IMG/VR virus record: IMGVR_UViG_3300033463_000020 | Reading direction: 5' to 3' (one strand) | Source: a virus | Taxonomy: Duplodnaviria > Caudoviricetes | DNA length: 64,000 bases | In this document: positions 157-48,120 of the stretch, in pieces | Layout: each line of letters begins with the position of its first letter | How positions within the stretch are numbered: the first letter of the stretch is position 1 | The notes under the pieces: generated by a model | Told to the model about the DNA's origin: nothing | Database searches by the model: none | Seen by the model: the letters and a program-made list of their open reading frames with translations, nothing else | Translations under genes and position numbers: made by a program

Positions 157-2175
157 ATGGACATTACATTAAAGTTAAATAAAGATTTTGAGCGCGCACT
201 GGACGCGTTACGTGAAGAATTTGGGGAAGAATTTGAGTACATTAATGGTATTCATCCCAGTCAGTTAGATTATTCCGAATTTCTACAGCAATTTACGGGA
301 CGCGATACCTTGGCAGATGCCACGATCGACCCCAACGCCAATGCTAACCATAGAGATATCCGGTCTTTTATGACGGAAAAAGGCAAGCCTTCAGATAAGC
401 TGTTCGGCCTAAGCAAAATTTTCTACGAGATTAAAAAGCAGTGGGGATTAAAAACAGCTAAAGAATGGCTCCGCCAGGAGTTTAGCCGCGGTTTCTATCT
501 GAACGACAGTGCGACAGCGTCGTTGTATCCGTATTGTTGGGCGCAAGACGTTACGCGTCTGGCTACGGAAGGCCTGTTTTTCCTGAACCACTACAACAAT
601 GAAGCGCCTCAGCATTTATTGACATTCTTCGATGATGTTATCGAGTTTATTTCATTCTTGTCTAATAGGCAGTCTGGCGCGGTAGGGTTGCCCAATGTCT
701 TAGTTTGGGCCTACTATTTTTGGAAGCATGATGTTGAAAACAACTATTACATTAAAGATCCCGAATATTATTTGCGGCAATCGTTCTAGAAGTTTATCTA
801 TAGGTTAAATCAGCCATTCCTGAGAATCGATCAAAGTGCCTTTACTAACGTTTCTATCTTTGATCGTCCGTATCTAGAATCGCTTTTTGGAGGCGTAGAA
901 TTTCCTGACGGATCCTTTGCTATTGATCATATCGAAGATCTGATTCATGTACAAGAAGTATTTATGGAAACGGTTTCCGAAATACGCAAGGTAAACATGT
1001 TTACATATCCTGTGCTAACTTTTTGCATCCTTAAAAAGCCCGGATTAACCGACGCAGATCGCGAGGCGATGATGCGCAATCGGCAGTGGGATCTATTTGT
1101 GGATGATAAGTTTGCCAGGTGGGCATCGAAGCACAATATGCAATGGTACGATTCGAACTTCTTCTTGTCGGACAATGTGGGCACCCTATCGAATTGCTGC
1201 CGACTTCTCAGCGACACTTCCAAGTTGGATGCTTTTATTAATAGTATTGGTGGCACCGCGCTTTCTGTTGGTAGTTGTCGTGTTAGCACTATCAATTTGG
1301 CGCGTATTGCTTATGAAGCCCTGGGCTATGATAAAAACGTTAATGTGGACCTTACCAAAATCGATCTGGAGAAGGCTAAACAGCGTTATTTAAAGATCCT
1401 AGAGGAGCGCACGCTACTTGACTGCAAGGCGCTGTTCAGTATGCGGCACATCTTGAAGCGGAATATCGAAAAGGGTCTATTGCCAAATTACTGTGACGGG
1501 GGCGTGGAACTAGACAAATAGTTCTGCACAATTGGCGCAATTGCGGCATATGAGGTTATGGATTTGTTTGGCTTGATTCAAACGGATGAGTTTGATAACA
1601 AGAGCTATTCAGACGGGGCTGTAGAATTTATGACCCAGATTTTGGATACCATTAACCGCGTCAAAGATTCCTTTGACTGTGATTACTCTATGAATTTGGA
1701 ATGCATTCCCGGCGAGAATTGTGCGGGCGTTATCTGTCAGGCTGACAATCTCTTGTTTAGACAGTCGCGTTATTTTATTTACAGCAATCAGTGGATACCG
1801 CTGATGGCTAAGTGTACTTTGCAAGAGAAGTGTCGGCTCGGGCATCTGTTCGATGAAAAATGTGGTGGTGGTACCATTGCACATATTAATGTCGAGAACA
1901 GATTCCCGAATGAGCAGGCGGCGTGGGACATGCTGAATTATGTTGCAGCATCTGGCGTTATTTATTCGGCATTCACTACTAAGATTAACGTATGTGAGCA
2001 CAAACACGCGAGCATAGGCACGAGTACGTGTCCAGAGTGTGGGGGTCCGATCGTTGACCAGTTTGCTCGTGTGGTAGGTTTTTATGTCCCTATTTCCAGT
2101 TATCAAAAGATTAGAAAACGGGAATTTGATTTACGGAAGTGGTATAACGTTTTGGAGTCCGAGAGGCTGTTTTAA
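157..2175 (+). CDS. nrdD: Anaerobic (class III) ribonucleoside-triphosphate reductase, 672 aa, 2 in-frame TAG
   Basis: ORFs 157, 964 and 1558 share one frame and are joined only by TAG (787, 1519). Motifs: QSGAVG, SNCCRL, C-terminal CEHKH..CPEC Zn site, RVVGFY glycyl-radical loop. The TAGs sit at usual Gln positions (F-Q-KFIY, LDK-Q-FCTIG). Confidence 0.95.
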
Positions 2176-2682
2176 GTGAAATTAAAGTTTTTAGTTGACG
2201 AGGACTGGAGTAATTATAAAATTTGTGCAATGTTCTTGGGGTTCCCATATTGTTCGTTTAAGTGTGAGCGCGAGTGCGGCTGTCCGGGGATATGCCAGAA
2301 CAGTCCATTGGCTCGGGCTCCAATTATTGAGGTCGACATAGATCGTATTGTCGCCCGTTATATGGACAACCCCATCTCCGGTGCTATCGTGTGTGGCGGT
2401 TTAGAACCTTTAGATTCGTGGTCGGAGTTGTTGGCGTTCGTGACTGCAGTGCGGCAGCAAACCACCGATCCGATTGTGATTTATACTGGATATTATGCCG
2501 ATGAAATTACAGAGTAGTTAGACACTCTTAAAACTTTTGAGAATATTATTGTAAAATTTGGGCGTTTTATTCCAAATCAACAATCGCGGTACGATGAGGT
2601 ATTGGGGGTAACCCTGGTTTCTAATAATCAATATGCAGTGTATCTTGGCAAGTCTACAAACGGAGGTACGAATGGAGCTTAA
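2176..2682 (+). CDS. nrdG: NrdG-like radical SAM activase, 1 in-frame TAG
   Basis: CSFKC..C motif and GGLEP. The frame continues past TAG 2515 through KFGRFIP..LGVTLVSNNQYA to TAA 2680-2682. Confidence 0.85.
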
Positions 2683-3796
2683 GCAATGTATCATGACCAA
2701 TTCGCGTTGCTATAAGGAAGGCGGGCGCATTGAGCCGCACATCGGTATCGTTGTGCACTCTACAGGGGTAAATAATCCCAATATAGCGCGCTATGTCCAA
2801 CCTAGCGACGACGATCCAAACAAAGACGCGATTATTGCAGATATCGGTAAAAATCGATATAGCAATGACTGGAATCACACTAACGTCAGTGCCGGAGTGC
2901 ATTGTTTCATAGGTAAAAATTTAGCAGGCGATGTTGAGTGCTATCAAGTATTGCCATGGAACAATGTGGCGTGGGGTGTCGCACGCGGTAAAATGCTGCC
3001 GAAGGGCTCTCCGTGCTATGCTGACTCCGCTCGGAAAGAAGTGGCATGCACAACCACCGAGGACAACTTACTGCCAGATGCGGTTTTTGCCACTTTGGAG
3101 AAGAGCGGCGTTGCGACCTGGCAGTACAAGGGACGGTCAGTTTATATCGAATATCGCGAGCTGGGTTCGTATAATTATGCGCCCACACCATACTTTCAGT
3201 TTGAGATCTGCGAGGATGGGCTAAAAGACGAAGCTTATTTTAGAAAATGTATGCAAACCGCACAGGAACTGTGCGCCTATTTATGCCAAACGTTTAATAT
3301 TCCGGTGGAACGGGTGGTTTCGCATCGCGAGGCATGGCTGCAAGGTTACGGAAGCGGTCATAGTGATCCGGATCATTGGCAAAAGCTGTTTGGTAAAGAT
3401 ATGAATTGGTTTAGAAGTGAGGTAACAAAACTAATGGGAACTACGACTTTCAAAGTTGGCGATAAGGTGAAATTTAAGTCCACGGCGATGACCTGGATTT
3501 CGGGAAGCACGATCCCTGCTTGGCTGAAGAGTTGGGAGCCGCTCTATGTTAGACAAATTGGTAGCGATGACACCAAGATTCTTGTATCGACTGTACCGAC
3601 TGGCGACGTAAGTGGCTGGGCTCGGGCTACAGACCTAGAGCTCTTGGAGCCCGCTGTTGATCCCACGCCGGAGCCGCAGCCGGAACCGGCCCCTGCGCCC
3701 ACGCCTGCACCTGTAGCGACCGAGCATTATAAAAAGCTCGCAGAACTGTATACGGCTATTGCTTCGGAGTTCCAGGCGATGGCCGACGGTAAATAA
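2672..3796 (+). CDS. Endolysin, N-acetylmuramoyl-L-alanine amidase (Amidase_2) with SH3-like C-terminal region
   Basis: VVHSTG, VHCFIG, QFEICED, SHREA..GSGHSDP Zn-amidase motifs. FKVGDKV..GW cell-wall-binding-like segment and Pro-rich linker. GGAGG RBS before ATG 2672. Confidence 0.85.
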   Translation: MELKQCIMTNSRCYKEGGRIEPHIGIVVHSTGVNNPNIARYVQPSDDDPNKDAIIADIGKNRYSNDWNHTNVSAGVHCFIGKNLAGDVECYQVLPWNNVAWGVARGKMLPKGSPCYADSARKEVACTTTEDNLLPDAVFATLEKSGVATWQYKGRSVYIEYRELGSYNYAPTPYFQFEICEDGLKDEAYFRKCMQTAQELCAYLCQTFNIPVERVVSHREAWLQGYGSGHSDPDHWQKLFGKDMNWFRSEVTKLMGTTTFKVGDKVKFKSTAMTWISGSTIPAWLKSWEPLYVRQIGSDDTKILVSTVPTGDVSGWARATDLELLEPAVDPTPEPQPEPAPAPTPAPVATEHYKKLAELYTAIASEFQAMADGK

Positions 3797-3847
3797 TTAT
3801 TCACATAACCGAGGGCAAAATCCTCGGAATTCTATACTTTTTGCACA

Positions 3848-3865
3848 ATAAAAAGAGGATTTTAT
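3848..3865. promoter_or_regulatory. ATAAAA-N6-TTTTAT palindrome, copy 1
   Basis: ATAAAA AGAGGA TTTTAT; the same arms and spacing recur at 17308, 51255 and 62865. Confidence 0.5.
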
Positions 3866-3897
3866 TGTGCGCATGGAGCCAAAAGGAGGGCTAAACT

Positions 3898-4236
3898 ATG
3901 CTGTATTATTCTAAGAAAACCAAACAAATGTACGAAACTGTCGAGGCGCTGGAGGAGGCCGAAAAAGCGTATGATGCTGAAATAGCAGAGCGTGAAAAAC
4001 AGGCCGCGGAAAGAAAGAGTCGTGCTGATGAGGTCCGGAAGGCTTATGAACACGCTCAAGAGGTCCGGCGCGCCGCGGCTGACATGATTACCAAGGCAGA
4101 TAAGGAATACTATGCTTTGCGTGATAAATTTGTACAGGATTATAAGGGTTTTCATTGGACGGTCTATGAAACGCAGACCGTCGATGATAATGTAATCAAT
4201 TTGCTAGGTCACACCCTGGCATCCTGGTTGCTTTAA
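3898..4236 (+). CDS. Hypothetical coiled-coil phage protein
   Basis: AGGAGG RBS, 112 aa, charged helical composition, TAA stop. Confidence 0.75.
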   Translation: MLYYSKKTKQMYETVEALEEAEKAYDAEIAEREKQAAERKSRADEVRKAYEHAQEVRRAAADMITKADKEYYALRDKFVQDYKGFHWTVYETQTVDDNVINLLGHTLASWLL

Positions 4237-4274
4237 TCTTGTAGAAAATCATAAAGTAAATTTTCTGCAACTTG

Positions 4275-4302
4275 GGGGGGTCTCGCTGCGGCGGGGCCCC
4301 CC
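4275..4302 (+). terminator. GC-rich hairpin (terminator or RNA-stability element)
   Basis: GGGGGGTCTCGC-TGCG-GCGGGGCCCCCC, intergenic, with no clear U-tract. Confidence 0.4.
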
Positions 4303-4442
4303 GATCATATCAATCTTACGATTGGAGGAGAGTACATGTATAAATTTCGATTTAAAGCACAGGATATACGCGTGTTCTCCTGTGACCGTAAAATTGTGTG
4401 GCCCCCAAAGGGCGTATTAAATAATGGGTGAGGTGAGAATAG

Positions 4443-7400
4443 ATGGCAGAGTTTTTTGATAGTATGGATGAAGTGCTGGCAGAATTACAGCGGCAAAATG
4501 CATTGCCAGATTTCGCCAATCCTACGGTGTCTTCTGGCCTGGGGGCTGGACGTGGTTTTGAAACAGAGAACGCTGAAAGCAGTTTAAGGAAGATTGAACA
4601 GGCCGCCAAGAAAGCACATGACGCTGGTTTAGAGGCGAGCACGGTATGGCATAAAGTTGAAAGTAAGCTGCAGCAACAAGGATATCGTATGGTTATTCGG
4701 CGGTCTCCACGTGGCCGCAATGAGTTTGAAATCTTTGCCGTACCTGACAATTTGTCCAAGTAGGAGCGTTAGGATATGAAGGTCTTGACCCAGTATCCCA
4801 ATCTCGTATGGAGTGGGCTGGAGAATGGGTTAAGTTCGCGCTATGGGCAGAAAACGATTGACCAGGGCCGATTAGATTATCTGGATGGTGCCCTGGCGTT
4901 TTATACCAATGCTACGCAATAGGCACAGGCAATTTTAAATCGTCTGACCAATCCGCGTGGCGGTAATAACACTAGGTATAATGATTATGCTAAGCTTGCG
5001 CGCAATGCCAAAAATGAGCTTGAGCGTCGTATTGCATAGCGTCATATTAAGAGTTCCGTTGCTAATGCAGAACGACATGCTAACTCTGGTTACAATGCTG
5101 TTAATAGTTATTAGACCGATGAGTTGTGGAAAATGATGCAGGGCACTGGTACGGCCCGCTCGATTGCGCAGCGCAAGTCTCTGGTAAGCATTTAGCCGAT
5201 GGTGGACTCTATATTGAATAAGGAATTCAAATAGATCATCTAGGCCTATACTAGGGCCAACCCATCGCGGCAACTAAGCAATTAGCAATTCAAAGCACGT
5301 GCCGAGCAGGATATTTTCCATACCCTATATTGGTATTTACAAAATCGTGCCGTGGACGCTTTAGAGAAAGAGTTGACCGAAGCTTCCTCAAAAGGCTGGA
5401 ACGCTGGTTATCTTTGGAAGAATCCGGAAATTCGTAAGGTCCTGCAAAATGCTGGTAGGCAATTGCACGGATTGGGGGCCGATGTCGGTCTCACCGGTGA
5501 GAGCTCGGCCAACCAAATGATGATAAACCTATTGCGGCACGGTGACATTGGGGTTTTCGGTTCACTGGGGGATAAGTCCGGCCGTAAACCTATGCAAGTG
5601 GCACAAATGCGTTAGCGGCAATAGAGAGCGCAAGAGGCTCTGGTAAAAGCGCTGATGAACTCCGCAACAAGCGGCGGTCTTTACGGCAAACGTCGTGTAT
5701 ATACAGGATGGGAGGTTGCCGCGGGGCTGGACAAGCTTGCGGAAGAATAGGCCCAGACCGGCGTTATGTTTGCCACGGCCGAGGAAATCCGCAAGGCGCA
5801 ACAGGCTCTCATGACGAGGGAAAAAAATAAGCGCAGCGCTGCTTCTGTGGGATATGGCAGTCTGCCGCACAATGGTGGTATTTTTTATAGCAAGGCATTG
5901 GGAGCAACTTTGGATAGTCACCAATAGCGATCAATGTCGGTATCTATGGAGGCTTTTAAGCGCGCGCAAGATAAGTTGGTCGATAAATTGCTGACCCCCG
6001 AAACGCGTGCCGATACTATTAAGAGCGTTGCCAAGTCGATTAAGGCTGGCGCAGCCCCACGAGCAGCATTTACACAATGGATGTCAACTTTTGCGCCGGA
6101 TCAGCGAATCGATCAGAAACAATTTTGGGAAGCCTTAGAGGCGCAAGAGTTCGCGGCAGCCTATTCCGAGGCGTTGTAGCGGCAAACTAGTCGCGAAATC
6201 CTTAGGAGTCAGAAGGGTATCAAGTTATCAACGGTCGGTGATCTCGCCCGGGTCATTGAACGGGATCCCATGGGTAAGGATCAGGTCACTATTGAATGGC
6301 TCGAAAAACACGCCATGCAGTCTGGTGAAAAACTATTGGGTGGGGCGCACTTTGTCAAGGGGCGCGCTAAAGAGATTGAAAATTTCCAGGAGTTAGCAGA
6401 GTAGATTTGGCTTGCTCGCGGGAAGAGCGCAACCACTGCGAGCAGATTGGCGAACAGGGTTGGGTTGCTGATGGAGCCCGAGAAGTTAACATCACGGAAT
6501 CCCGATGCTTTTTTGGCTGCATTCTTCGATGAGATCACTCGCGCCTTGGGAGGGGCGGGCGGTTCTCAAACACTCCTCAACTCGTTTATTGAGAGCGTCA
6601 ATTAGACAGTAGACGGAAAGAAGTGGCTTGAGCAGGAAGGTGACCATTGGAAGACGAATTTTGACCGTTTCGCGCGTCGGCCTGGTGATAGTGATGCGAA
6701 GATACAAGAGGCACTTCAGTCATATGTGACGCAGGTATAGCGCGGTTTGGCTGATGTGACGGAGCAACTCACCAAGAGGGCAGGCACACTCACCAATGAC
6801 ACTTTGAAAGCTGACGTCAATGCTCTAAATGATGAGCTAACTATGATGGGTCAAGCCTTAACGATCAAGGACGGTCAGCTGAAATATGACCCCAGCAAGT
6901 TCATCGGTGCCACGACCGTGGGGCAGCATCATGCCTATGACTATGGAGACCCGGGCCGCGCAGTACTCAACGCGGATTATCGTTTAATTGGTGCCATCAG
7001 CCGTGGTATTTTACGTAGTAACTTAGGAGGCACGACCTCTCCTGAGTATGCGCGCGCTCTATTGGGGCAGCGCAGTCGCAATGGCACGCCTAACGGGCAA
7101 TATGCCTGGCAGTTAGATTTGGATGCCAACGGCAACATTATAAACGCCGGTCAATTTGGCGGAACAGCGGAATCGCGTCGTGCTCATGAGCAGTGGGTGA
7201 AAAGTTTGGCTGCTGTTAATGATGTCAAACAATGGATGAATACACAGGGTGGTACCTGGACGGTTGCGAATTGGATGGCCAAAGGTAATCAAGACATTGT
7301 TTTGGGACATGGTCAGCTCGCGGAGTTTTTAGGTGCTCATGGTGTAGACGCCGGCGCGTTGTCAAAAAAGTAGCTCGCACAGCTCAAGAAACGTTACTTA

Positions 7401-10400
7401 GATGTGAGCGGCTTGCATGATGATTCGTTTGCGTATAAGGGCGAGTATGACGAGGGACATATGTCTGCTGCCGATTTCGCATCGAGTTTTGGGCGCATTG
7501 CGAAACTTGAAAAAGCAAATGCGGGGCGTTTGCTGTTTGTGCCTTTAACCGGAGGTATCGCCGGATCGAGCTTGGGAAAATAGTTGGTAACGAGCGCAAT
7601 CGCCCTGCCGCGTATGGACGCGCTGGGGGGCGCCGTAGAGACTATTTTAGCCAATGGGAACCGTGGTTATGATATCCCGGAACCATTGCGTATACTGCCA
7701 AGCCTTATCAATGCGTAGGATGACGTGCATTTTGCGCGAACTGGTCAACTATCAATCACACCTAAAGAGGCTTCCGAAGCTTTTACACAAGCCGCTTTTG
7801 AGAATATCGGACGAATGGTAGCCTCTGTGGAGTCGAAAAATGGTTCGGTGTGGCAGGCTGGCAATAAGGCGAAGCTATATCATTCCGCGATTCGGCACGC
7901 TACGGCGCCCGACGTCAAAGGGGGCGCCTGGGGCGCATTGGGTGATGTGGCTACTCGTATGAACCCCGAGGATCTCGAGGCCATGCTGAGCAAACAGGAC
8001 CCAGACCAAACCGATGCTCAATATCTATCGCAGTTACAAACATAGTACTATTATTTATATTCAAATTTAGTTGAAGATCCCAAAAAATTAGAGGACATGT
8101 GGTCTGCGGTGAGCAGCCGGTACAAAGGACGCGCAGCCCTGACGAAGCATCTTACAGAGCTTGTGACCCGGGGATCGGATGCTTTTAACGCTCGTGCAGA
8201 ACTGGCTCAGCATAAGAAAGTAGCATTACATGGATTGGCGGGATTCGGTCTTCGTTATCCGTTGTCGAATGCCGAAGATACGCGTGCTGCGGATATTTTT
8301 GCTGATTCCGAGTTGGTGTCCGGTGAGGTTGTGGCGGCGCTCGGTGCTGGTGCCGGGCAAAACCTGGACTTCGATGGTGACACATATGCTACTGTGCTGC
8401 AAATGTTGGGTACCAGCGATCCAGCAGAGCGCGCGAAACTGGTAGCGCAGATGGTTCGGCAGAATGAGGTAGACCAGAATCTAATGCGTCGCCAGGCCGA
8501 TGCGTTCCGTGCGGATTATGAGAAAGAGTTAAAATCGGGAGTATCCTTGGAATCCATTGCACGGGCCGAGGCGGGCGAAGTTGCAGCGGTTACATCACGT
8601 TTAAACAAGGGGTTCACGGGACGATTTAGTAACCAGTTTTAGGCGATATCAGAGGCGTTGTCGTTGAACGAGCCATGGGCTGATCGTGACACACCTATGA
8701 ATGCAGAGGAACGTGCTGCGTTCTTATAGAATCAGGTGGTTCGCGCAGTATATGAAAGCTTTACGCAAGACGCTATTTCCTCTAAAAAGGTGCGCGAGCG
8801 TATCGAGGACCGATACGGTTCGGCTTGGGCTGGCAACTCCGGATACCTCTCTGAGATGGACAAGTTGTACGAATTGATCCAGGGCAAGAATACTTATGCC
8901 GGTATTGAGAGCATCAAAGATTTGGTGACTTTGGCTCAGGATCTGAAGATTCTGGGTACTGATGACAAGGGCGGAGTGTTTGGTTGGCGGTTGAATTCAC
9001 AATTGCTGGCAAAAATGGACCAGTTCAGCGACGATGAGGTGGCAAAAGCGCTGGGTGTGTCAACGGATGTTGTACGCGCCTGGAAGGATCCCAGCAATCA
9101 AGCTGCCACTCTTGGACTCACTGGCGATCAGCTTGCGCGTCTTATAGATACGGTTAACACGCGTGTGAAACGTGACACAGGGTCGGATATTGGCGCCGTC
9201 ATTCGTGATAAGATGAACCGCGCGGGTGGTATTGATGCGACATCAAACCCCATCTATCGCGTTGGCACTGATATGGGCACGGAAGCCCAGTATGAGCGGG
9301 TTAAAGAAACGAATGCGGCTCTAGCAGAAGCCGGCGCGCAAGCCGGGGCCTTCGGCGAAGCCCTGAAAAAAGCCACAGTAGCTTTAGATACAGCCACAGA
9401 CGAAGTTAAGGAAAGCACGGCCGCAGCTCAAAAGCGCGATGACGTCCTGGAGAATCTGGAATACGCGTTGAAACACCGTGCCACAGATGCGCCCGTAGCT
9501 GTTACGAGCTTAACGAGTAGTTTAGCGGGGGGCAATTTTGCTTCTGCGCTGGATAAGGCCGCGTTTGAGGAGGCGCTTATCCTGGCGCATGCAGATAACC
9601 CCAACGCCATTTAGTCGCTCGAAGGTTATGACGCTGAGACTTTTAAAAAGTTTCGTAATAGCCTGCTTGGTTCACGTCGTGGTACCATCGCCGACCAAGT
9701 AGAACAATTGGTGAATACGTACGGTCTGGACACGAGCCAAGTTAACAGTGTTGACGACTTCATTAAATTAGTTGAGGCAGATCCGAATGCACGTCAGGAT
9801 CTATACGAGTATAATCCCTCCGAGCACGCTATTGGTTTGGGGGTACTTCTTGGCCGTGGTGACGAATCTATTTATGGCAAGGATAGCGACGCACTGAAAG
9901 CAGCGCAGCGCAATCGTGCGCTTCAAGAGGCGTTGTTTGGTACCGAGAATGTAGATGCTGACCAATGGTCTCAACTCGTTAAAGGTTTTAACTTAGCAGA
10001 GGCGTTACAGCGCATGGCTTACAATGTGGGTGGCTAGTTTATTGGTCATGAATTTGGTGTTGTAGGCGGCAATGGCGCAGGTAACGCTGCCGGATGGAAC
10101 CATGGTCGTATTGACCTTTTGATGAAGAGCGTCGGAACACGTTCCGATGGTTCTACATATAATATTCTAGACGTTTTTGATAAAAAGAGTGTCCCGAGTT
10201 TAAGTCAGCTAGATAAATATGGACCTGGACTAAATTATCTCGCGCAGGTTGCTGTGTATGCAGAGGATCTGCGGTAGTTATAGGCTTATATTAATAAACA
10301 TGGCATAAAAACGCTGGGGCAATTAAAAGATAATAAAGAGTATTATTAGAACGCATGGCTGGCCAAGGGTGGCCGCGAGATTGATGATGAAACGTTTGCG

Positions 10401-13400
10401 TTATTGAGCGACCCCTCTACCGTTATTCGTGCTGCATTGACTTATGTAGACGATTATGGTAATATTCGAAATTATGACGTAGGCAGCGGTTTGGGTGGCG
10501 ATAAAGCATTGATGCGGCGTTTAGCAAATTATGCTATGCATGAAATCCCCGAGGCCAAGTGGGAGCCAGGCGATGCTGAGGTAATTAGACAAATCACGCG
10601 GATTAATAACCGAGGTGTAGCATTTGGCGGCCATGGTGGCGGCGGAGGCGGCGGCCCAGTTATTCCCATTGTTGGTGGAGCCGGAACGTCTGGCAACGGC
10701 GGCCTGATGAAAGAACTGAGCAGTGGCTTGGGTAAATATATCGGTCGTATTTTGGGCGGTAGTGGTTTGTATCGCTTATTTGCTAAGGTGCGCCAGGGGA
10801 TTGCATCTCTGGTAAAAGAGGCCACTGAACTGGACAAGACGTTGACGAACCTGCAAATTACTACTGGCGGTACACGTGAAGACACACGCCAACTGCTTTC
10901 TACATATGCGCAACTTGGACGTCAGCTCGGCGCTACCACACAAGAGGTAGCAGCTTCGGCGCTCGAATGGCAACGTTAGGGTTATGAGGCTGGCGAAGTG
11001 GCCGATCTGGTGACGTCATCTTTGTATCTAAGCAAACTCGGCATGATTGACGCCTCTACGGCAACGTAGAATTTAACTTCCGCCTTAAAGGGCTTTAAAA
11101 TCGCTGCATCTGAGTCTATGGATGTCGTCGATAAATTGACAGCAATTGACTTAAAAGCAGCAACTTCCGCGGGTGAAATTGCCAACGGCTTAGCCCAGTT
11201 TGCAAACATAGGTAGCTTGGCTGGTGTAAATCTTGACGAAGCGGCAGCGTATGTCGCGACAATCGCCGATGTTACCCAAATGAGTGGGTCGTCCGCAGGA
11301 CAAGCGCTAGAATGTTTTTGGCGCTTTATAGGGATAATACATAACCCTATTGGTAAAATCTTTTCTAATGATTAATATTAGATTTAATATTATGCTTGAA
11401 AACCCAGAAGTGGGCAACAAGGAGGAATTCGTTTTGATAGTTCAACAAAAATTGTGTAAATATTGTGGTAAGATATTTACACCCAATAGTCCGCGGCCCG
11501 ACTTGGTGCAATATTGTAGTCAGCATTGTAAATATGCGGCGGATTATAGTAAAAAATATCGTTATACTTATACGTGCACAAATTGTGGCGCCACAATTCA
11601 TCGCAGCCGCAAAATTACAGGGGCGTAGCCATTTTGTAATCAAGCATGTTTGAGCGCGTATGAGCATCGGCAATCGTATGAAACGCGCACATGTGAAAGT
11701 TGCGGGCAAATTTTCGAATGCGCCAAAACTAGCACGCAAAGGTTTTGTAGCCCTGAATGCCAAATTACGTGGCAGCGTGAGTATCCGAGGAGTGGGGGCG
11801 ATCACCCCGCATATCGGCACGACGTCAGCATCGCTGAGCGTACAATAGTTTGTGCATGGTGTGGCGTATCTTTTGTTGTCGAACCATGGCAAATTTCTAA
11901 AACTAAATTTTGTTCGCGTTAGTGTAAGCATGCAGCAATGTTAGATGCGGCACGTACCCAAAAAACTTGGGCTGAGCGTGTGGATACGGCTCCTTAGCGC
12001 ATCGCCAATGCTTTACTAGAGAGGTTGGGGATCGCATTTGTAAATGAGTATCCGTGCGGCTATTTTAGTTTAGATATTTATTGTGCAGAATTGCATATGC
12101 CCATTGAGGTGATGGGTACGTATTGGCACGCAGATCGCCGTATATATTCGACATTATCTGAAATATAGCGTCGAGATATCATTCAGGATAAGCGCAAACG
12201 CACATATGTACGGAATCATTTATCGGCCGAGATCTTATATCTTTGGGAGCAAGATTTATATGACGACCCGGCATTATGCGCGGCTTTGGTATCTTTATAT
12301 ATTGAATAGCATGGACAACTATTGAACTATCATTCACATAATTATCATCTAGAGAACGGACAGGCGGTGTTGAACGATTGTCCATTGGAAAATTATGTGG
12401 ACGCTGAGAATGATTACCACTCATTACTTGGCAACGGAGCCTTGAACGACTGAATGAAAAGACCCCATTTCGATGGGGATGCGACAGTCTGAACACGGGT
12501 ATAACAACAAGAAGCCCGTGAGCCGCGGTCGAGTGTAAAGACACTCTTGGAAGCACCGTGGCCCTCCGATAATAACAGGAGAGTAACAAAATTGTAAAAC
12601 AATTATATCACGCTATGGTAATGTTAAAGCCGGGGCTTTTAATAAAATGACCCTGGATGCCGACACTGGTGATGGAACCACGTTAAACGATGTTGAGCGT
12701 GTTTTATCCAAGCTGGGCATCAGTATTCGTGATAGCAATCTGTCGTTTAAAGATTTTAGCACCATTCTAGAAGAGATTGCCTCTAGATGGCAGACGTTAG
12801 ATAACGTTTCGCAACGTGCGATTGCAAATGCGTTTGCCGGCGTAAGACAGCAAGAGGCTTTTACGACTCTACTTTAGAACTGGGATAAATATCAAGAGTT
12901 ATTAGCAACCTCGCAGCAGTCCAAGGGTACTGCCGAAACCAAGTACGCGGCATACTAGTAGTCTTTGCAAGCGGCTCAAAGCGCACGTAAGACGACTTGG
13001 GAACAATTAGCCAACAGCGCAGAAATTTCTGAGCTACTAATTGCGATTAATAACGTGGGCAGATGGTTGGGAGAGTTTGTTCCCTTTCTGCTGAAGTGGT
13101 TACCACATGCGTTAATTTTAGCCGATCAGATCTTTTCAATACGCGGCGGCGGGTTTTTGAATGGCTTAATTAATTAGTTCTCACAAATGAAATTATTTTC
13201 AGCGCATAGCTTGAAAAATGAGAAATAGAAAACCCAAGAAACCAAAAAGCAGTATCGGGCCGAGCAGCAGAAGACTGAAGAAGAGAAGCATTAGGTGCAA
13301 GCGGAGCAAGAGCAAACTCGCCAAGATCAGCAACAAGCAGCAGGAGGATCGGGAGATGGCAAGACATCTGCCCGAGGCCGGGGCGGCGCGCATAGCAAGG

Positions 13401-16400
13401 CCCAGGTTATTAGTGCTGGTATTACTTACGGCCTCGGTCAAATTGCTTCGGGCTTAAGTGCTTATGGCAGCGCTGGGGCTACGCATACTTTTACGAATGC
13501 CGCCGGCGAAAGTCGTGACGTCAACTCTTCTTAGCGCGCACGTCAGGCTGGACGCGGGATCGCAGCGGTTTTAGCCGTAGCCTTACCCGCCGTTGGCGCT
13601 ATTCTTGGCAATATCGTGGGCGATGAAGTTAGCCGTCGGATTGATGCGGCACGCGATGCAGCCGACGAGCGTACGCGGGTGGCATAGGAAAATTTGCACG
13701 TATTAACCAGCGCACAAACCAACTTGGAAACTATGATCCGACTACGAAATGCGGCTCTCGTCTCAGAAGAAAAAGAGCGCGATCAAGCCATTGCTGAGTA
13801 TATCGCGACTATGTATGCTTCGGATAATGTTGCGGTACGGGAAATCTTAGAGAAGTATTTAAAACAGATTTACGGAGAGACCAAAACTATTAGGCAAGTA
13901 ACCGAAGCGATGCATTCGGGTGATGAAAAGGAGCGCGCTTAGGCCGCACACGCCCTAGAATTGGCCCAGGCATAGGCCGAGCACGCTCAAACGCGTCGAG
14001 CTCGAGCGTCTGAGGACTATGCGGAAGCCGAAAGATTGCGTGAGGCTATGCTGGCATATAATGCGTCACGTCCGGGGTATACGGCCAGCGGCATTAGCAA
14101 CCGGACTAATGGTCTGAATATAGGACATAGTGCTGGCGTTGGGGCAACGGCAGGTGGTCTTGTCATGGGCGGTGAGGTCGCCGCTATGCTGGCGGCGGCT
14201 GGCGCAGTAAGTGCCATTCCTGTGTGGGGGTGGATTATAGCAGCGGCATTAGCAGCTACAGCCGGTGTGGGCGCGGGTGTAGCCGCTTATAAGTCGAGAT
14301 CGGCCAGAAGCGAGATTGAGGAAGGGCAAAACTGGTCCTGGGAAGAGCAGTGGGACGACCTGAAGCTGGACGAGAAGATTTCGCGGTTATTAGCGGCTGA
14401 AGAGGCCCAAAAAGACGCAGTCGAACGTAACGCACGGGGTGCCACTGAACAACTTGAGGCTACGCGTGCCCTCCGAGAAGCCTACGAGGATTATCGCGAG
14501 TATTTACGCGCATAGTATGAGGAAGATAACAAAGCTAAAATGGATGAGGCTTTGATTTATGCTGGTTGGTAGTCTAACGGCTCTTTTAATACTGATTCGA
14601 GCGATATTAACGCCACAGAGTACTTCTTGAAGGATTTGAACGTCGTATAGGCAAAAAATTACGGGCAAAAGGCGTTGTATGACGCGCTGGCTGAAGCGCT
14701 GGGCGAAGGTGCGCTTGAGGGCATTAATATTAAAAATGCCGAGGGTGAATATACTGAGTATTTTGTAAATTATGCACGGCATATTATGTCCGAGAATGAG
14801 GACGTAGAGTCTGTTCTCAGCGGCGAAGCGTATACCTTGAATGAGGCGCTTGACAAGCTAGGCTCAAACACTGATCAATTTAGTCGGGCGACGATGCAAG
14901 ATTTCGCACGTGCAATGCGTGTTGCACGCAAAGAACTGGGGGACTATAGTGAGCTGGTGGGCGAATTAACTTTGGCTGAATTGATGATGACGACCACAGA
15001 GCTCGAAGAAGAGTTCGACAGCTTATACGGAGTACTGGGGAAGGTATCGGACGGCACGCAGTCTGTAACCAAGTGGATGACAGACATTGTGGCTCACTAC
15101 CCCGATTTAATTAATTACATGAGTAGCACTCCGGCGCTCATTACCGCAATCGTGAACAAGCTCTATGACTTAAACAATCAAACCATGCGTCAACAATATG
15201 AAGAATATGGTGAAAGTACATCGTTCTGGGCAAAGACGATGCGCCCGGGCGCTGAAGGTTGGCTGGCTGAACAGGAGAAGCAGGGGAACATTACCTCAGC
15301 AGAACACGAAGCGGTGCTTAAACTGATCCAGGATAAGCGAATTACTAAGCTGAACGAGGCGGTGCAGAGATTGGCCGTGGTGCCATCTTTGGCTGAAGAT
15401 AGCCCGTTGCGGCGTACCTACGAGCTCATGGAACGGGCTATAGAGGCGGGCACTAACGGAGTTATCCTACGCTCGGATATTTGGACTGAACAGACCCAAA
15501 AGCTGACCAATTTTATTGCCGAACAACTTAAAGCTCAAGTGGCTGCGCTAGAGGCTCAAAAACAGGCGTTGCAGGATGTTAACAAACAGCGACAATTTGA
15601 GGTTGAGCTTCTAAATGCACGCAATAAACTTGCAGACGCAATGAATCAAAAGCAGCGCGTCTATCGTACCGGCGTAGGTTTTGTATATGAGCCTGATCAG
15701 GGGGCTATCAAAAAGGCGAAAGAAGAACTGTAGGAAGTCTAGTTACAGAAAGACGTGTCGAAAATTACTAAGCAAATCGACATCTTGCAGGAGGAAGCGA
15801 GTTAGTGGGAGACCCTGTGGAGCACGCGTACCAAGGAGCTCTAGGAGGCAGTTATTGAGGAAATTTGGGGCAAGAATTACACGAATTTTAAAACCGCGTT
15901 ATTTGGAGATTCTGCGCAGCAGACCTTGAATGTTGGTGAGCATGGCGTTAAGGTGGACGCCGCGAGTCTTCATGAGTAGCTTGATACTATTTTTGGTACG
16001 AGTAAAGGTGCGTTTAGCACTAGTATACAGACTGCTGTTTTTGGATCTACTGAGACGTTGGCTACTTGGTGGCAAAAAACAGGCGCGACATCGGTCGAGT
16101 CATTGTTTGGTTATTTACAGGCCATTATAGATAATCAGAACAAAGAGACGAACCCCCAGGTTTTAGAGTTACAGTAGGCGTTCAAAACCTATAACAAGTT
16201 AGCTTCAGCTCGGGGTAACGGTGTATCGGTTGACGCCAATGAGTGGAACTCGGCATTACAGGATTATAAGACCAAATTTACTGCCGCAGTAAATGCGGGG
16301 CTCATAGATGAGAATTGGGCATTCAATTAGAATTATAATCTCACCAGCCAAAGTCACGCCCCGGGCAGCCGATATGAATATACTTATAATCCCTGGGATC

Positions 16401-17311
16401 TTGGAAACCATGTTGATAAGCTTCTGATGACCCCCAGCGCAGTGGAGGCTGTGTCGACCGTTGGCGAGATATTCCGACAGGGCGTGGTTCAGGCGCGTGC
16501 AGGATATGCGTGGCCTTAGGGGGAGAACCCTTACAATTCCGCAGTTCAAGTTACGGGATATGTGCCCATTGAGCCCACCTCAACGTTTGCCACTGGTTTG
16601 AATCGCGTTAAGAACGAGTTTAAGTGGGGTGATGGTGAGGGGAAAGAGCGCGCCTGGTTCTGGACCCCGGGTCTGCTTAAGAGCGGGGGGGCCGAGTTTT
16701 CTGAAGGCACCTCGAGCGACCTAATGACAGCATTTACATCGGCTAATAACTGGTCTGATGTTGCGCGCAACTTAGCTGACGAAGATGAGTTTTTAATTTG
16801 GACCCAAGATGGCGGTTATATCTTATTATCCGGCGGTCACGCATACAAAGCGAACACAGCGACATTGTATGAGGTAGGTAAGACGTTGGCGCAATAGGGA
16901 TTGAGCGGATAGGAGCCCTCTCTCGGACATACGACCAGAGGAAGCCACGCGGCTGGAAGCCTCGGATTGGCTCAAACTGGTACGAGGTTAATTAATGAGT
17001 TTGGCACTGAAGCGATTATTACCCCTTCTGGCACCATTACTGCGCTACCTTCGCATACTGGGATTATTCCTGCCGATATTACGCGGAATCTTTGGCAGTT
17101 GGGTGAAGTAGCGCCTAGTATTTTGCGCGTCGCCGAAACCATTGCACCCGATAGCATTCTCCGCAGCAGCACCCAGTCTGCTATAACAGATCAATCGTTT
17201 AATATCAATAATTTGTCGATGAGTGTCAATGCCGACGATAGTTTTGACGTAGATGCCTTCATTGAAGCGATTAAATCCCGCGTTGCCTTGACGCATCACG
17301 CTCACCGATAA
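4443..17311 (+). CDS. Giant tape-measure protein with N-terminal two-barrel RNA polymerase-like region and PD-(D/E)xK nuclease-like domain; join(4443..11308,12595..17311), ~3860 aa, about 50 in-frame TAG
   Basis: Fragments from 4443 to 11118 share one frame and those from 12647 to 16967 share another; the offset equals the 1286-nt intron. I read the gaps and found only TAG. TP901-type tape-measure core at ~10800-12950 (ELDKTLTNLQITTG..EWQRQG..SKLGMID..VVDKLTAID..GQALKTIISRYGNVK). Typical TMP C-terminus (HAAG..LINEFGTEAII). Confidence 0.9.
11309..12594 (+). mobile_element. Group I intron in the tape-measure gene
   Basis: Removal restores GQAL|KTIISRYGNVK in frame (CT|T). The exon ends in U and the intron ends in G. 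P1 is AAGCGCT(11302-11308)/GGCGCTT(11320-11326) with U.G at the splice site. P10 is TGTTTT/AAAACA. P7 is GACTG(12448)/CAGTC(12485) within R- and S-like elements. Confidence 0.9.
11434..12453 (+). CDS. Intron-encoded homing endonuclease: Cys-rich Zn-finger repeats plus Vsr/DUF559 (EDxHD-like) nuclease domain, 5 in-frame TAG
   Basis: GGAGG RBS then TTG 11434. Four CxxC..CxxxC repeats. C-terminal NEY..LDIY..IEVMGTYWH..QDKRK..ILYLWEQD. TAG at 11626, 11920, 11995, 12166 and 12307. The TGA stop overlaps P7. Confidence 0.8.
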
Positions 17312-17515: not shown

Positions 17516-20500
17516 ATGGCGGTTTATAAACCCACTTTGTGCTATCCATTTTCCAATGGTCTAGACATTCGCACGGGTGTCCAGAAAATTAGCGAGACGG
17601 GTGCGCTCGTAGATCCAGCGCAATGCTTGACGTGCCGTATTGAAACGTCCAATGTTGCAATTACAGGATATTCAGTAGCATTGTTTTCGACGGCTCACGA
17701 ACAAATTTTTCCCAAAGTTTTTGAAGATGCGACCAATAAGATACCGTATGTGAGTCCAATTTCGGAATTGCAGTATGCGTCTTTGGGTTATGACGCACAG
17801 AATCCCACGGGGGTTAACTCGGGTGTTAATGGTGCAACATTGCGTATTCCTTTTTTCCGTGCTACACGTGCAGACACTGACTATCCGAGATCATTAAACG
17901 CCATATATTATCAAGCTGATTATGTTGTGGCACATTTAATTTTAGACGAAACCGCTGCAGAGGAGGCGCCTAGTGATTACCGAGCCACACGAGACCCCAG
18001 TGTATATACTAATGTCGATGAGGCCGAGTACTGGAAACAAACGACGCGTACGGGGGGTACGTATTTAATTCATACGACTACCACCGATCCCACCGATGTC
18101 ACACATATTTCCAATGCCAGTTATGTTGCAAATGGTGGCGCTTTAATATGTGATGGCGAACCCTTAATTGTGGGTGATTTAGTAGGGGTGATTTTGGGTA
18201 CTGAACCCCAAAGTGGTGCACCTATCTAGATGACCAAGGGTGGTATATATGAGGTTGCCACAATTCCTGCGGCAGACGACGATAGTCGTATGATTTTCGC
18301 GCTAAAATTGCGTAATACGTTAGCGCTAAAAAGCCGTTTAGTGGTTTGGCAAGGTGCGTCTTTGCATAATACCATGTGGGAGGTTACTACTGATGGTTTG
18401 GGGTAGCGTGGCGCATTGGACGATGCTTTGTGGTGCGATACCTACGGTAACCCCGTAGAGTTGGACGCGCGGGGGACGCATTATCAATGGGAGATTACGC
18501 TCTACCAAGGCACTACCGCGATTGGCGAGTCGCTACCCATTTTACCCGCCGATACTGTAATGCGCACTCGTTATGGTGGCTGGGTAGATTATACAACTAT
18601 TGGCCCTCAATGGTTTGATAATATTGTAACTGGTGGACAAATTATGGGGTCGACGCCAGAACGGCTGTAGTTGGCCGATGCCAGTGAGCAATATTTACCG
18701 GCGGGTACCGATTCGGATCCCCTGGTGTTACAAGATACATTTTGTGCTATATTCCCGTTGCCCGCAGGGTCGGCAACAGATTATACATCCTGGTCGAGTA
18801 TTAGTCGCTTTCCTGTGCATGATTACGATGCACGTTATGGGCATGTATATCCTTATGCCAAAACTTTGTTAGGCCTGAGTCCGCCCAGCGCAGAATAGTG
18901 GTGTGCTTTTTATGAACACTCAACAAATCCGCAGGAAATCTTAGACACAGATATTGTGGATTATGCATATGCTACGGAACTAGCCTTAAGTTTCTGGCAC
19001 GTAACCGATGGCGCTTGGCACCAAGATTCGATATCTGCAAATGACTATAACGCTGTCGATCTTTGGAAGGGCGTGTCCGTGACCGAACGGTATCTGGTCG
19101 TGGGATCGGACGGTAGTTATAATCCCAATCCTACAGGTAGTGGCGGTCAAATTTTGTTAACTGCGCAATCCAGACGGTGGCAAAATGGCGTGTGGCAAAT
19201 TAAAACGATGGAAGCAGCTTGGGGGAATAGCACAAGTAAAAAATATTATTTAACTCGTGCAGCTAAGTATGAAACCTGGGGCGATTTCATTGGCCGCATC
19301 GTCTATGCCCCACAGCCGTCCAGTATGAACTGGACTAGCCTAGCAGCAGCCGGGGCCGCCAATTTGTGGAATTACCAAGATGTCGATATGCAATATGGTC
19401 GTGGGGATTTAGTATTTTCACCTGAGCGACCTATTCTATTGTTCCGAGAAAAATTATGGCACGTAAATAATTTTACTGGCGTGGTCCGTAGTGTGGATCT
19501 ATATAGCGCTTACTCGGCGGGGTCAGGTTTTACCCCGCAAGATAGCGACGGTGCCCGTTAGAACGCATGGCAAATTGGCGATTATGTGGCGGATCGCACG
19601 GGTACGATCTATTATGTTGCGGGCTGTACGCGCAATCACACGTAGTTTACTTTGGAGCGGGTCGGTAACGCCGCAAATTATGCCTTTATTTATGTCGTCA
19701 ATTTTGCGCGAACGTCTACGGGAATTCTTTATGATGCCGGGGGCACCGTTTATACCTGGGTTCCGGCGACGAATTCAGAGCCCGCGAGCTGGCAACAAAC
19801 ATGGGAGTTACATCGTGCTAAAATTTTAAAGAATAATACGACGTATACTTATGTCTCTCCTTGGGTTAAGGGTGTGGTGGATGCACGTATGAGCATGAAA
19901 TTGCTTAGTCCGGGTGTTGCGGTGGTCGCAAACTCGAACGTCACCACTGATATTATTCGTATTCGTGGCCTGAATGACGTGGTCTATCGTTTAGATCACG
20001 ATGCATTGGATGAGCCCATGGAAGCATATGGCGCGAGCAACCCCTTTATTCCCTATCGTTACAACATCTGTAGTTATTTCCGCACATCGGAGCCGAATCC
20101 CTTTATTGCATATGAGCGTCCGTATTTACGGCTATTCTTAGAGCAAGAATTGTTGACTAATTTATCGATGGTTGCGCCTAGTGTGCCTACTGCTGTAGAA
20201 ACCAGCCATCCTTTAGCGGTGGAGTGGTTGGAGCACATTACCACATATGTGGCAAGAAAACTCAACTTAGGTGTTGAATACCAGCAATTTAACCACACGA
20301 TGTGGGAAAGTTACTAGTGGAAATTATATTCGGGTGATGGTACGACCCTATTGCAAGACACCGGACGGTGCTACGATGGACTAATTTAGACAACATTTTA
20401 TGGTTTGGCCAACGAGCTGAGTGCAAATGTTCCCTATTGGGCTTCTGTGATTGTGGAGAACAGTGTCGGCGATGTTTTGGAATATCGCTTACGTTTTGAA

Positions 20501-23500
20501 ATTGCTGCGGGTTCGCAATCTTCTTTTGTGGATGATGGCGGCGGAGAACGGTGCTGGTTTACCGCTGCTTATGATTGCAATACATAGTCGAATTTAATTA
20601 CATTCTAGTGGGCCGATCCCGATTAGCCTACTCCGGTATCCCCGAAGTATTCGGTTTACCGTCGAGAATATGAGGTATATGAACAACCCGGGGAGCGTTT
20701 TGAGGGATATCGTCAAAGTGATACCGTGTTCACTCGTGATGCCGCCGGCACCATTCCTCTGCCGCGTATTGACTAGGCGTTGTATGAAGATTTAACTATT
20801 GTGGGGACTAAACCTGCGCACGTATTTTATGTTTTCCGCGGGAACCTTGGCCGTTTTGTATAGTCGGCATCGACATATCGTGAATTTAAGGGGGCCTGGG
20901 AGCCCGTGGTAGCGGTACGACAAGCGCCTGCAAACGCTTATATCGATCTATTCAGAGATTTTAATATTTCTAATGGTCGTTCGTATCAGTATATCATTTA
21001 CCCGGCCATTGATGAATGGGGCACCCCAGAAACTGTTGAGCAAACCTTTGCAAACTACTCTGGATTAATTTGGGAACCGCTATCAGTCAATGCCGGTGCA
21101 TTAACAGACGGTACTTTGGAAACCTCCCCGTATAACGGCGGTGCTGTGGTTACAGTGGGCGATTGCTGGAGTTTGGTTGAATTAGTGCCTGAAAAATCTG
21201 ATATTAATGCTCCGATTATTAATTAGCGTTATCGTGTAGATAATGATAATATTTGGTTATTTAGATATGATGTTGAAACCGGAGAGCAGACTCAAAATTT
21301 GGCACGCAATGAATTTGCCAACCTGGGACGTTATCCCAAATTTGGTTTTGGTCGTACAAATTATGCATCTGGGGCGGTATCGGCACAATTGGGCAGTGAA
21401 TTGGTATGCTCATCTAAATATAAATATATTGAACGTTTATCGCATTCGCGGCTGGCCCCTCTTTCTACCAATGAAAAAGCAGAGATGCTGAAACAATGGT
21501 AGGCCTTTATGTATTCACGCAATCCTAAATTATTGCGAGATATTAAGGGGCAAAGTTGGATTGTGCAAGTCTTAGCGTCATCGAATCGTACTAAGAATTA
21601 TTATCCGGAAACGCCGGACACGATTTCCTTCCAATGGAAAGAAGTGGGATCACCGCGTAACGTTATTATTTATGGAGACTATAATGCAGACAATGCTGAA
21701 ATTAGTAAAACCATAGGCAAGGCCGCGTGGAGTAGGGTATTCGCAGGTTTGGGCGGTGCTAATGCAGCAGTGCCCGAAGTGCCTTATCGTATAACATGGA
21801 GTGATGCGATGTGGTCGTTCGATACACTTAACACTGGGACAGAAGCGCGTATTAAATTGGGGGCACCGCCTACGGCTATAGATGACTATACATATGCCAT
21901 TAGTGGGGCCGCTGTTAATGGTGTCGGTAAAATAGGGACCGTTACCGATCATAGTGGTGCTGCTATCACGTTACCCGCGACTTTTGACAGTAGTGCCCTG
22001 TATTTCTGGGTTTTGAATGCCAACGCTCCTTTGCGACTATATTTCCCGGTGGAGACTGTGGTCACTGCAGATTATACTAATCCTTATGTCTTAATTCCTA
22101 CGGGAGACACAGAATTAGTCGTTGGAGCCAATCATACTGCATATGATCTTTTGGTGGTCACTAACAATGCAATGGCCGCAGAGTCGAATCCGGCCTATGT
22201 TGTTGCGGGCAATGGCGCGGCTGCCATTACACGCTTGGATTTCATATTCCCTGCGGATTATAGTGCCCCTCCGAGTACTGTTGTGAATACTGACTATGTC
22301 AAGGTAGACATATAGGGTACATCGGGTAGTGTAACATTTTCTTGGGTACGCGATGATGCGTCACATGGGCATGTGTTATTATCTGGGGTTACTGCACCAT
22401 TGAAAGTTGCCATTTCTGGTATGTTGCGCCTGGCAGCGCCCACCCTAAGTCGTAGTGCGCCCACCAGTACCGTATTAGTTTGGACCAGTATACCGAACGC
22501 TACCGCGTACGAGGTATACTTGGACGGCACATTGGTGACTACTACAAGTGCGCAAACATATGATTATGCTGACTATACTGGTACACCCACAGCTGGCTAG
22601 CATTTCTGGACAGTCTGTGCGGAGACAACGACGGGGGCATTTTCGAAAGAAACCTCCCCAGTTATCGCACAGTGGTATACGATCGTTAGCCAGTGTGCAC
22701 GTTGCGAAGTCCGTCCGGGCTCAGATAGTGGTACTTGGGATTATACGTCGGCTACAATCTATTATGTGTTTGACACTAGCACGAATTTGGCTTGTCCATG
22801 GCAAGTTCCCATGAGTAATGGTTAGCCCGGGGTCTGGTAGTGGACGTATTATAACTCGAGTTCGGGCAGCTTGTATATCTTGGGCGAAGATATGGCGGGT
22901 CTTGCAGCAGATGGTGTCATTACGCAAAATACTTTATATATTAATGTGGGCGCAGTACCTAGGATCACTGCCCCGGTAATTTCATAGCGCGGCACGGTGA
23001 TTTACTGGAGCACGAGAGCCGAAGTAGAGAAATATCGTGTGTATGCCGATTACGGGACGGACGTGTTCACTGTTGATCTCCCCAGGCCCGCCAGTGGTGG
23101 TAGGTGCCAGTATGATCTCTCCGATTATTTGACTCAAGCTACGACTTATGATATTTCTGTGGTGGCGTTTGGTACCAAGGGTCGTTTTTATGGCACCAGT
23201 CTACCTAGCAATGTTATTACGGTCACACAAGAAGCGATATATGCTACCACCGAGAACGGTGCTACGGCCGAGGCGTCGAATCCTGATATGATATGGCATG
23301 GAACCTCTGTTGTGTTGAAATATTGGTTTGACGGCGTGAATTATATCTGTCCAACTACTGCGCCAACTGTTACGGGTGCGACAGGCAGCTGGACAAAAAT
23401 TAGCGACCTGTATGGTGAACTAACTATTTCGTCGCCTACTGGTTCGGTAGTATTCACTATTTCTGGCGTACCTGGCGTAAGTACTAGTTATACAACCGTC

Positions 23501-47574: not shown

Positions 47575-47651
47575 GGGACGGTAGCCCAACGGCAGCAGGC
47601 AGCAGACTCAAAATCTGCCAAGTGAGGGTTCGAATCCCTCTCGTCCCACCA
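47575..47651 (+). tRNA. tRNA-Leu(CAA), short variable loop
   Basis: Cloverleaf; anticodon arm GCAGA-CTCAAAA-TCTGC, GTTCGAATC, A73, CCA. Confidence 0.85.
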
Positions 47652-47849
47652 ATTGCTCTGTGATCTTTGCGGATTAGGAGACGCGTCGGAAGCGCAAACT
47701 TCGTGGATGCGGGTGCCAGTCTATGAAGGCTCGCAGGTGAAGTCGCCCTCGGGCGATAAGGCCGTCCCTTGTTGCAGGACGGGGAGCGTATAAAGGGCAA
47801 ATCTGGCAACGGCCGGTACCTGAGACCACGAATCCGGCCATCTGAATAA

Positions 47850-47924: not shown

Positions 47925-47930
47925 TTACAC

Positions 47931-48000: not shown

Positions 48001-48005
48001 CACTT

Positions 48006-48080: not shown

Positions 48081-48120
48081 ATATGTTCGCTTTGCGCGAA
48101 CGATTCTTTAGGAGGTAAGC

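Follow-up and report, generated by a model that had tools for sequence, protein, structure and literature searches.

A predicted RecB-type nuclease module between the polymerase-like region and the tape-measure domain of a TAG-recoded phage protein

The DNA analysed here, hereafter the window, is a stretch of 64,000 nucleotides of the IMG/VR virus record IMGVR_UViG_3300033463_000020 (Duplodnaviria; Caudoviricetes) and corresponds to bases 72030-136029 of a complete viral record of 149,604 bp with direct terminal repeats. It contains a giant tape-measure gene, the first open reading frame (ORF) of which (4443-11375, + strand; protein P0001) encodes 2,310 amino acids (aa), includes 30 in-frame TAG codons, and is open only when TAG is read as sense. 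On the evidence given below, a module of P0001 (aa 1680-2075) very probably holds a diverged PD-(D/E)xK domain of the RecB type in which the active-site set is intact. This set is predicted to comprise GT-x-x-(H/D) with D1751, H1869/E1870 on strand 1, D1891 on strand 2, D1913-x-K1915 on strand 3, and Q1935-x-x-x-Y1939 on a helix. The best explanation of the observations as a whole, which we consider likely, is that of a cysteine-free nuclease domain of the PDDEXK_1 type that is built into the tape measure, delivered with the virion, and acts where the DNA enters the cell. What is directly observed is the reading frame, the presence and conservation of the motifs, the order of the domains, and homology with a module in an equivalent position that Pfam recognises as a nuclease.

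The module is located where the preliminary description had placed it, between an RNA polymerase region and the tape measure: in a single frame, the DFDGD signature lies upstream, and the PhageMin_Tail domain (PF10145, aa 2157-2290), together with matches to eleven tape-measure PHROGs, lies downstream (Table 1). Related loci (L003, L004, L005-L007 and L008) were reached with the tape-measure segment because its start is far better conserved than the module; the similarity of the relatives to P0001 starts at aa 2083-2092. A DxDxD signature N-terminal to the tape-measure domain, within one polypeptide, is found in the window, L004, L005 and L008, the DFDGD sequence itself being present in all of them, and the window and L004 share an invariant G-x-N-x-DFDGD. 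No polymerase was retrieved among the PDB sequences with a profile built from two sequences of the DFDGD region. The open frame continues past the end of exon 1 to position 11375, into an intervening sequence, while the uninterrupted tape measure of L003 aligns to 10716-11309 and then to 12590-13102. With TAG read as Gln, the mature protein joined from exon 1 and exon 2 would comprise approximately 3,860 aa.

Table 1. Features of the giant tape-measure gene and the candidate TAG-reading tRNA in the window
Feature	Position	Strand	Evidence and remarks
Exon 1: polymerase-like region, nuclease-like module and start of tape-measure domain	4443-11309	+	TAG=Q frame; end of coding match mapped with L003
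DFDGD (aa 1309-1313), metal-binding signature of two-barrel RNA polymerases	8367-8381	+	Sequence motif
Nuclease-like module (aa 1680-2075), with helical insertions, ending at the poly-Gly linker	9480-10667	+	Motifs and alignments
AVTSLT (aa 1686-1691), candidate N-terminal S/T motif	9498-9515	+	Weak conservation: L004 SVSTRL, L008 LSPTGI
RRGTIAD (aa 1745-1751), GT..H helix of PDDEXK_1 with D1751 replacing His	9675-9695	+	Aligns with L008 GSLRGTLAH
GHEFGV (aa 1868-1873), predicted strand 1	10044-10061	+	H1869 invariant
HGRIDLL (aa 1887-1893), motif II with D1891, predicted strand 2	10101-10121	+	G-R-x-D invariant in four lineages; aligns with L008 GGKIDAL, family GYIDRI
VFDKKS (aa 1911-1916), motif III D1913-x-K1915, end of predicted strand 3	10173-10190	+	D-K-K invariant in four lineages; aligns with L008 VGDYKT, family EDIKT
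YLAQVAVY (aa 1932-1939), motif IV Q1935-x-x-x-Y1939, predicted long helix	10236-10259	+	Q and Y invariant in four lineages; aligns with L008 QAQMY, family QFVIY
Poly-Gly linker (aa 2062-2071), boundary of module and tape-measure core	10626-10655	+	Sequence
First part of tape-measure domain	10716-11309	+	PF10145, 66.8 bits; phrog_4211 598-775; L003 aa 1145-1342
Intervening sequence (~1.28 kb) splitting the tape-measure gene	11310-12589	+	Gap mapped with L003
Exon 2, rest of tape measure	12590-17311	+	phrog_4211 788-903; L003 aa 1341-1512 = 12590-13102
Candidate TAG-reading tRNA (anticodon CTA)	47850-47924	+	ARAGORN

Under genetic code table 11 the region around the module splits into short ORFs, and reading TAG as sense yields frames of more than 2,000 aa. 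In-frame TAG codons are found near the module at 9612, 10035, 10275, 10281 and 10347, and those at 10035 and 10275 bracket a core of 79 aa (10038-10274). Since these flanking codons leave the core below the usual ORF cut-offs, it is missing from the table-11 ORF list, just as the preliminary description had explained the absence of most of the domain from its ORF track. In relatives whose genes were called in the standard code, Gln is found at two of the three alignable TAG sites near the core, in agreement with TAG encoding Gln. Recoding varies within this group of phages, the window, L004 and L005-L007 being TAG-recoded and L008 and L003 using the standard code; the L008 gene for the polymerase, nuclease and tape measure (1862-8839) and the L003 tape measure (6545-14671) are free of TAG. 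The tRNA with the CTA anticodon belongs to a cluster of nine tRNAs (window 47575-51242), and the Pyl label that ARAGORN assigns to this suppressor reflects the anticodon only.

The six motif strings on which the nuclease assignment was originally based, AVTSLT, RRGTIAD, GHEFGV, HGRIDLL, VFDKKS and YLAQVAVY, are all present at the coordinates first given for them and in one frame of ORF 4443-11375. Within the 20,333 residues of the long + strand frames of the window, the composite pattern G-x-h-D ... h-[DE]-x-K ... Q-x-x-x-Y has a single match, located at the module, with 0.04 occurrences expected from shuffles, and stricter forms were found in none of 300 shuffles; this count is only supportive, because the pattern was written after the sequence had been seen. 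Two other readings of individual motifs were discarded. H-G-R-I-D could be taken for the HxxxD of a Peptidase M23, but no HxH motif follows downstream and there is no Pfam hit, while GHEFG lacks the second His of a zincin HExxH.

Conservation of the motifs was followed across four lineages, represented by the window, P0006 (68% identity), P0004 (55%) and L004 (30%). The L004 locus, a TAG-recoded IMG/VR record, encodes a homologue of P0001 with 30% identity over residues 607-2211, and its module retains KGRYD, LDKKA and QDLLY. Nineteen of the 96 core columns are invariant across the four lineages, including the H, G-R-x-D, D-K-K, and the Q and Y of Q-x-x-x-Y. The motif residues are thus conserved in homologues down to 30% identity, where the preliminary description had named loss of conservation as the finding that would speak against a nuclease. 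The aligned core of the four lineages was compared with a 42-sequence alignment of the PDDEXK_1 family to which the phage's own stand-alone nuclease belongs, and hhalign matched the two in the catalytic register with a score of 20.1 (P 0.023), a score reached by only 1% of column shuffles (z 2.9). This signal appears only once L004 is added. With the close relatives only, hhalign placed HGRID, DKK and QVAVY on the GYID, DIK and QFVIY of the family.

The link to a recognised nuclease domain is provided by L008. When the related records were scanned with PF12705, the L008 record gave a match of 28.9 bits (E 5e-8), above the curated cut-off of 22, inside an open frame of 2,328 aa and approximately 1 kb upstream of the L008 tape-measure domain. 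The corresponding protein P0141 (2,325 aa, standard code) displays GDFDGD at aa 1300, followed by PDDEXK_1 at aa 1783-1910 (25.3-27 bits by hmmscan, cut-off 22) and by the tape-measure domain. The modules of the window and L008 are similar by BLASTP (E 8e-4, over FKKFRNSLLGSRRGTIADQVEQ / FEKQREYLIGSLRGTLAHAKQE and onward), and a hidden Markov model (HMM) of the candidate family scores the L008 module with 6.3 bits, above all of 1,000 shuffles. In an unguided MAFFT alignment of the window, L004 and L008, all five motifs fall into shared columns, the L008 sequence GSLRGTLAH marking the start of the Pfam PDDEXK_1 match and QGRMSD being the L004 equivalent. The assignment of the motifs to family positions that had been made by eye (S/T, GT..H, E strand, GxxD, DxK, QxxxY) is in this way reproduced column for column against a domain that passes the PDDEXK_1 threshold. 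The order polymerase-like region, nuclease, tape measure, for which a survey of homologous tape measures had been suggested, is encountered in three deep lineages: the clade of the window, L004 and L008.

Several results weigh against the nuclease assignment. The profile search that the preliminary description had proposed produced no match of the module to PDDEXK_1, Cas4 or any other nuclease profile at E up to 10, and with the close relatives included no PD-(D/E)xK model was retrieved from Pfam, NCBIfam, PADLOC or PHROGs at the same limit. A six-frame PF12705 scan of the genome missed the module and found only the stand-alone nuclease, profile searches of the PDB sequences with the module alignments returned nothing, and shuffled or reversed controls scored just as high in the hhalign comparison restricted to close relatives and in hmmsearch --max. 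The catalytic core alone, compared with the L008 core, does not rise above shuffles (P 0.29); because it misses significance, the statistical link to L008 rests on the N-terminal helix region and on co-linearity. E1870 of motif I is kept in the clade of the window and in L008 (SEIG) and is Leu in L004. Two AlphaFold models reached a mean predicted local distance difference test (pLDDT) score of 52 and 46.6 and stayed under 50 across the core. For these low-confidence models, two Foldseek searches of PDB and a VIA-align search, which covered the helical part only, listed no nuclease. In both models, with the same low confidence over the core, a helix, three strands and a long helix follow one another, and the motifs are located on the expected elements. 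The highest pLDDT values within the module (55-82) are reached by window 9708-9990 (aa 1756-1850), a helical insertion that separates the GT helix from strand 1; it is conserved, reads LYEY..GLGVLLGRGDESIYGKDS, and is shorter in L008.

Protein language-model searches were made with the exact table-11 fragment of the core and with its natural relative P0004. Neighbours of the 79-aa core were PDDEXK_1 (twice, 0.86), PDDEXK_3, Dna2, Cas_Cas4, PDDEXK_9 and DUF2800, and every named one is a PD-(D/E)xK family; those of P0004 include Herpes_UL24 and Tox-REase-9. As all scores are below the reliability line of 0.9, these neighbours are leads, and the language model probably reads the same motifs, a further reserve. 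An all-against-all phmmer comparison of 1.84 billion representatives returned only eight fragments of two or three close lineages, and no module relatives were found in GenBank phages or by pattern and tblastn searches in viral, metagenome and genome contig collections.

The failure of every profile library to recognise the domain, the low-confidence models with no nuclease fold match, the non-significant core comparison with L008, and the fact that several statistics reach only about P 0.01-0.03 would be expected if the resemblance were a coincidence at the level of motifs, the region being a lineage-specific linker or another fold and the L008 nuclease an independent insertion at a similar place. 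We regard such a coincidence as improbable, since five motifs occur in the order and spacing of the family, do not vary across the four lineages, and share their columns with a Pfam-validated domain at an equivalent position. The BLASTP match, the HMM score that exceeds 1,000 shuffles, the expectation of 0.04 motif patterns per window, and the origin of all named language-model neighbours from one clan also stand against it.

Compared with PDDEXK_1 (PF12705; RecB/AddA/AddB type), the module shares the motif set, its order, a similar spacing and the predicted order of structural elements. It differs in having longer loops, with an insertion of approximately 27 residues after the GT helix and approximately 45 residues of helices after the QxxxY helix, in carrying Asp in place of the His of GT..H, and in being too diverged for any profile library; moreover, PDDEXK_1 domains stand alone or beside a helicase, whereas the module is embedded in a predicted virion protein of approximately 3,860 aa. 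Cas4 (Cas_Cas4/DUF83) and the phage 'Cas4-like' exonucleases also share its RecB-like catalytic motifs, including QxxxY. Cas4 is defined by an iron-sulfur cluster held by four cysteines, while no cysteine is found anywhere in aa 1620-2075, and the module is therefore not Cas4 proper.

A PD-(D/E)xK fold need not be catalytic. Inactive PD-(D/E)xK domains are common across the superfamily, and the module might have been retained as a DNA-binding or structural element that holds the genome end or positions DNA for the polymerase at the pore. The loss of the motif-I Glu in L004, the Asp found at the His position of GT..H in the window (D1751) and in L004, where L008 has His, and the absence of the module from L005-L007 would fit such an element. 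On the other hand, the invariance of the motif II Asp, D-x-K and Q-x-x-x-Y at 30% identity is the pattern expected if catalysis is under selection, and Asp is able to replace His as a metal ligand; we consider a non-catalytic module quite improbable.

The L005-L007 loci represent a third, very divergent polymerase-tape measure lineage. Their ORF (3869-10417, + strand; 2,182 aa, 15 TAG codons) displays DFDGD at aa 1169 followed by the tape measure, and BLAST found no similarity to P0001 in the part that precedes the tape-measure domain. Between DFDGD and the tape measure they contain only a helical stretch rich in K and E, and no nuclease module. The module is thus accessory, as L005-L007 keep DFDGD and the tape measure without it. 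The L003 tape measure has an N-terminal extension of 1,144 aa, in which neither DFDGD nor a nuclease hit was found.

Virion polymerases of the N4-like and crAss-like phages are capsid-internal ejection proteins of short-tailed phages and are not fused to tape measures, and we know of no nuclease domain reported for them; similar to the protein proposed here, the N4 virion RNA polymerase (vRNAP) and gp66 of the crAss-like phage phi14:2 are carried inside the virion and, once ejected, transcribe early genes. The fusion of a polymerase to a tape measure has already been described for the Thermus phage P23-45, where the virion RNA polymerase gp96 (present also in P74-26, G20c and TSP4) forms one protein with the tape measure (Chaban et al. 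2024, PMC10770324). It is the only described tape-measure-fused polymerase that we found, and we found no description of an interposed nuclease. Like the protein of the window, gp96 combines an N-terminal DFDGD polymerase region with a giant tape measure and is presumably delivered at infection. By contrast, Pfam displays only Peptidase_M23 in gp96, with no PD-(D/E)xK domain at Pfam sensitivity, the paper that describes it mentions no nuclease (PMC10770324), and the phages studied here are mostly TAG-recoded and have tape-measure genes with intervening sequences. A tblastn search with aa 1000-1700 against 50,697 GenBank phage records, including P23-45, gave no match at E 1e-3. We found no paper that reports a nuclease domain inside a tape measure, and the combination of polymerase, nuclease and tape measure was also not known to the author of the preliminary description.

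Fold, activity, virion delivery and substrate of the module are predictions, and its role is considered here by analogy with known systems. As in other tape measures and in P23-45 gp96, the whole polypeptide would be housed in the tail tube and, at infection, pass out of it into the cell envelope and the cytoplasm. The nuclease would in this way reach the cell ahead of the expression of any phage gene. Linked to the polymerase on one side and to the DNA-entry channel on the other, it would most likely act at the entry site as a Mg2+-dependent nuclease on DNA ends or single strands. The QxxxY group of nucleases (RecB, lambda-exonuclease, Cas4, Dna2) is active on DNA ends and single strands. The putative fused two-barrel polymerase may prefer single-stranded templates, like the crAss-like virion polymerase gp66, which works well on single-stranded or denatured DNA and poorly on double-stranded templates (bioRxiv 10.1101/2020.03.07.982082), and for P23-45 gp96 transcription has been proposed to take place at the tape-measure pore during DNA entry (PMC10770324). 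On account of the substrates of the QxxxY enzymes and the template preference of gp66, we prefer a role in which the module would resect the 5' strand at the end of the linear genome as it enters and so provide a single-stranded template or promoter for the fused polymerase. The protein might thus form a machine that injects, resects and transcribes, with the tape measure as entry channel, the nuclease resecting the 5' strand of the first end to emerge, and the polymerase starting pre-early transcription with no host factor; we put this forward tentatively, as a possibility. The presence in the phage of a separate canonical nuclease, available for later functions, is counted in its favour. Against it weigh the absence of the module from L005-L007, the fact that P23-45 does without one (gp96, Pfam), and the harm that a nuclease beside the entering genome could do.

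The same domain evidence would equally fit an active virion-delivered nuclease with another target, which would degrade or nick the host chromosome, a plasmid or the DNA of a competing phage for host shut-off, nucleotide supply or counter-defence. Arrival before phage gene expression would suit an immediate attack, and the separate canonical PDDEXK_1 nuclease would be kept for recombination and replication. However, a nuclease tethered between the polymerase and the membrane-spanning tape measure could reach only DNA close to the entry pore, and it would have to tell host from phage DNA by some means. RecB-type QxxxY enzymes mostly depend on DNA ends, and an intact host chromosome offers none. 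We consider this target unlikely.

Tape measures were long regarded as passive rulers, until P23-45 showed that they can carry a polymerase as cargo. If the reading of the module as a nuclease is correct, a toolkit for DNA processing and transcription would be delivered through the tail as a single polypeptide and would recur in deep lineages of uncultured, mostly recoded large phages, offering a testable idea of how single-chain virion polymerases gain a usable template on freshly injected double-stranded DNA. An active nuclease in this position would also represent a new class of virion-borne nuclease for host takeover and counter-defence. Domains of this kind are missed by standard annotation, hidden by TAG recoding, intervening sequences and extreme divergence.

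The intervening sequence of the window contains an HNH homing-endonuclease ORF (11350-12453; phrog_1271, E 3.6e-19), and a search of 11200-12800 with Rfam recognised no group I intron family nor a member of any other Rfam family. Interruptions are found at differing positions in the tape-measure genes of the group: at 6174-7571 and approximately 7893-8169 in L004, 10337-10645 in L005-L007, and 8840-10000 in L008. Only some of the intervening sequences contain ORFs of endonuclease size, namely the HNH ORF of the window and ORFs of 355 aa in L004 and 282 aa in L008. Twenty residues past the exon end of the window are also conserved in L004, which suggests that the 5' part of the intron is shared by both.

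The stand-alone canonical PDDEXK_1 nuclease is encoded by ORF 32477-33544 (+ strand; 355 aa, 3 TAG codons), with a match of 73 bits at 32573-33352. Because four cysteines are invariant (C44, C286, C289 and C306), it is predicted to be Cas4-like, with an iron-sulfur cluster. This nuclease has hundreds of relatives, and a nuclease of this kind is present in every related record examined (G001-G005). One relative, P0017 (62% identity), is encoded on a contig of 145 kb submitted under the name of a Methanobrevibacter sp. metagenome-assembled genome; the label may hint at the host or result from erroneous binning.

The tape measure is immediately followed by an ORF of 2,405 aa with 22 TAG codons (17516-24733, + strand) that matches nothing in Pfam or the PHROGs, and next comes a tail protein (24756-26015, phrog_1887). 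A bacterial host is favoured by the endolysin of the window, an Amidase_2 (2633-3796). An anaerobic ribonucleotide reductase NrdD (133-2175, + strand; PF13597, 247 bits; 3 TAG codons) points to an anaerobic host environment.

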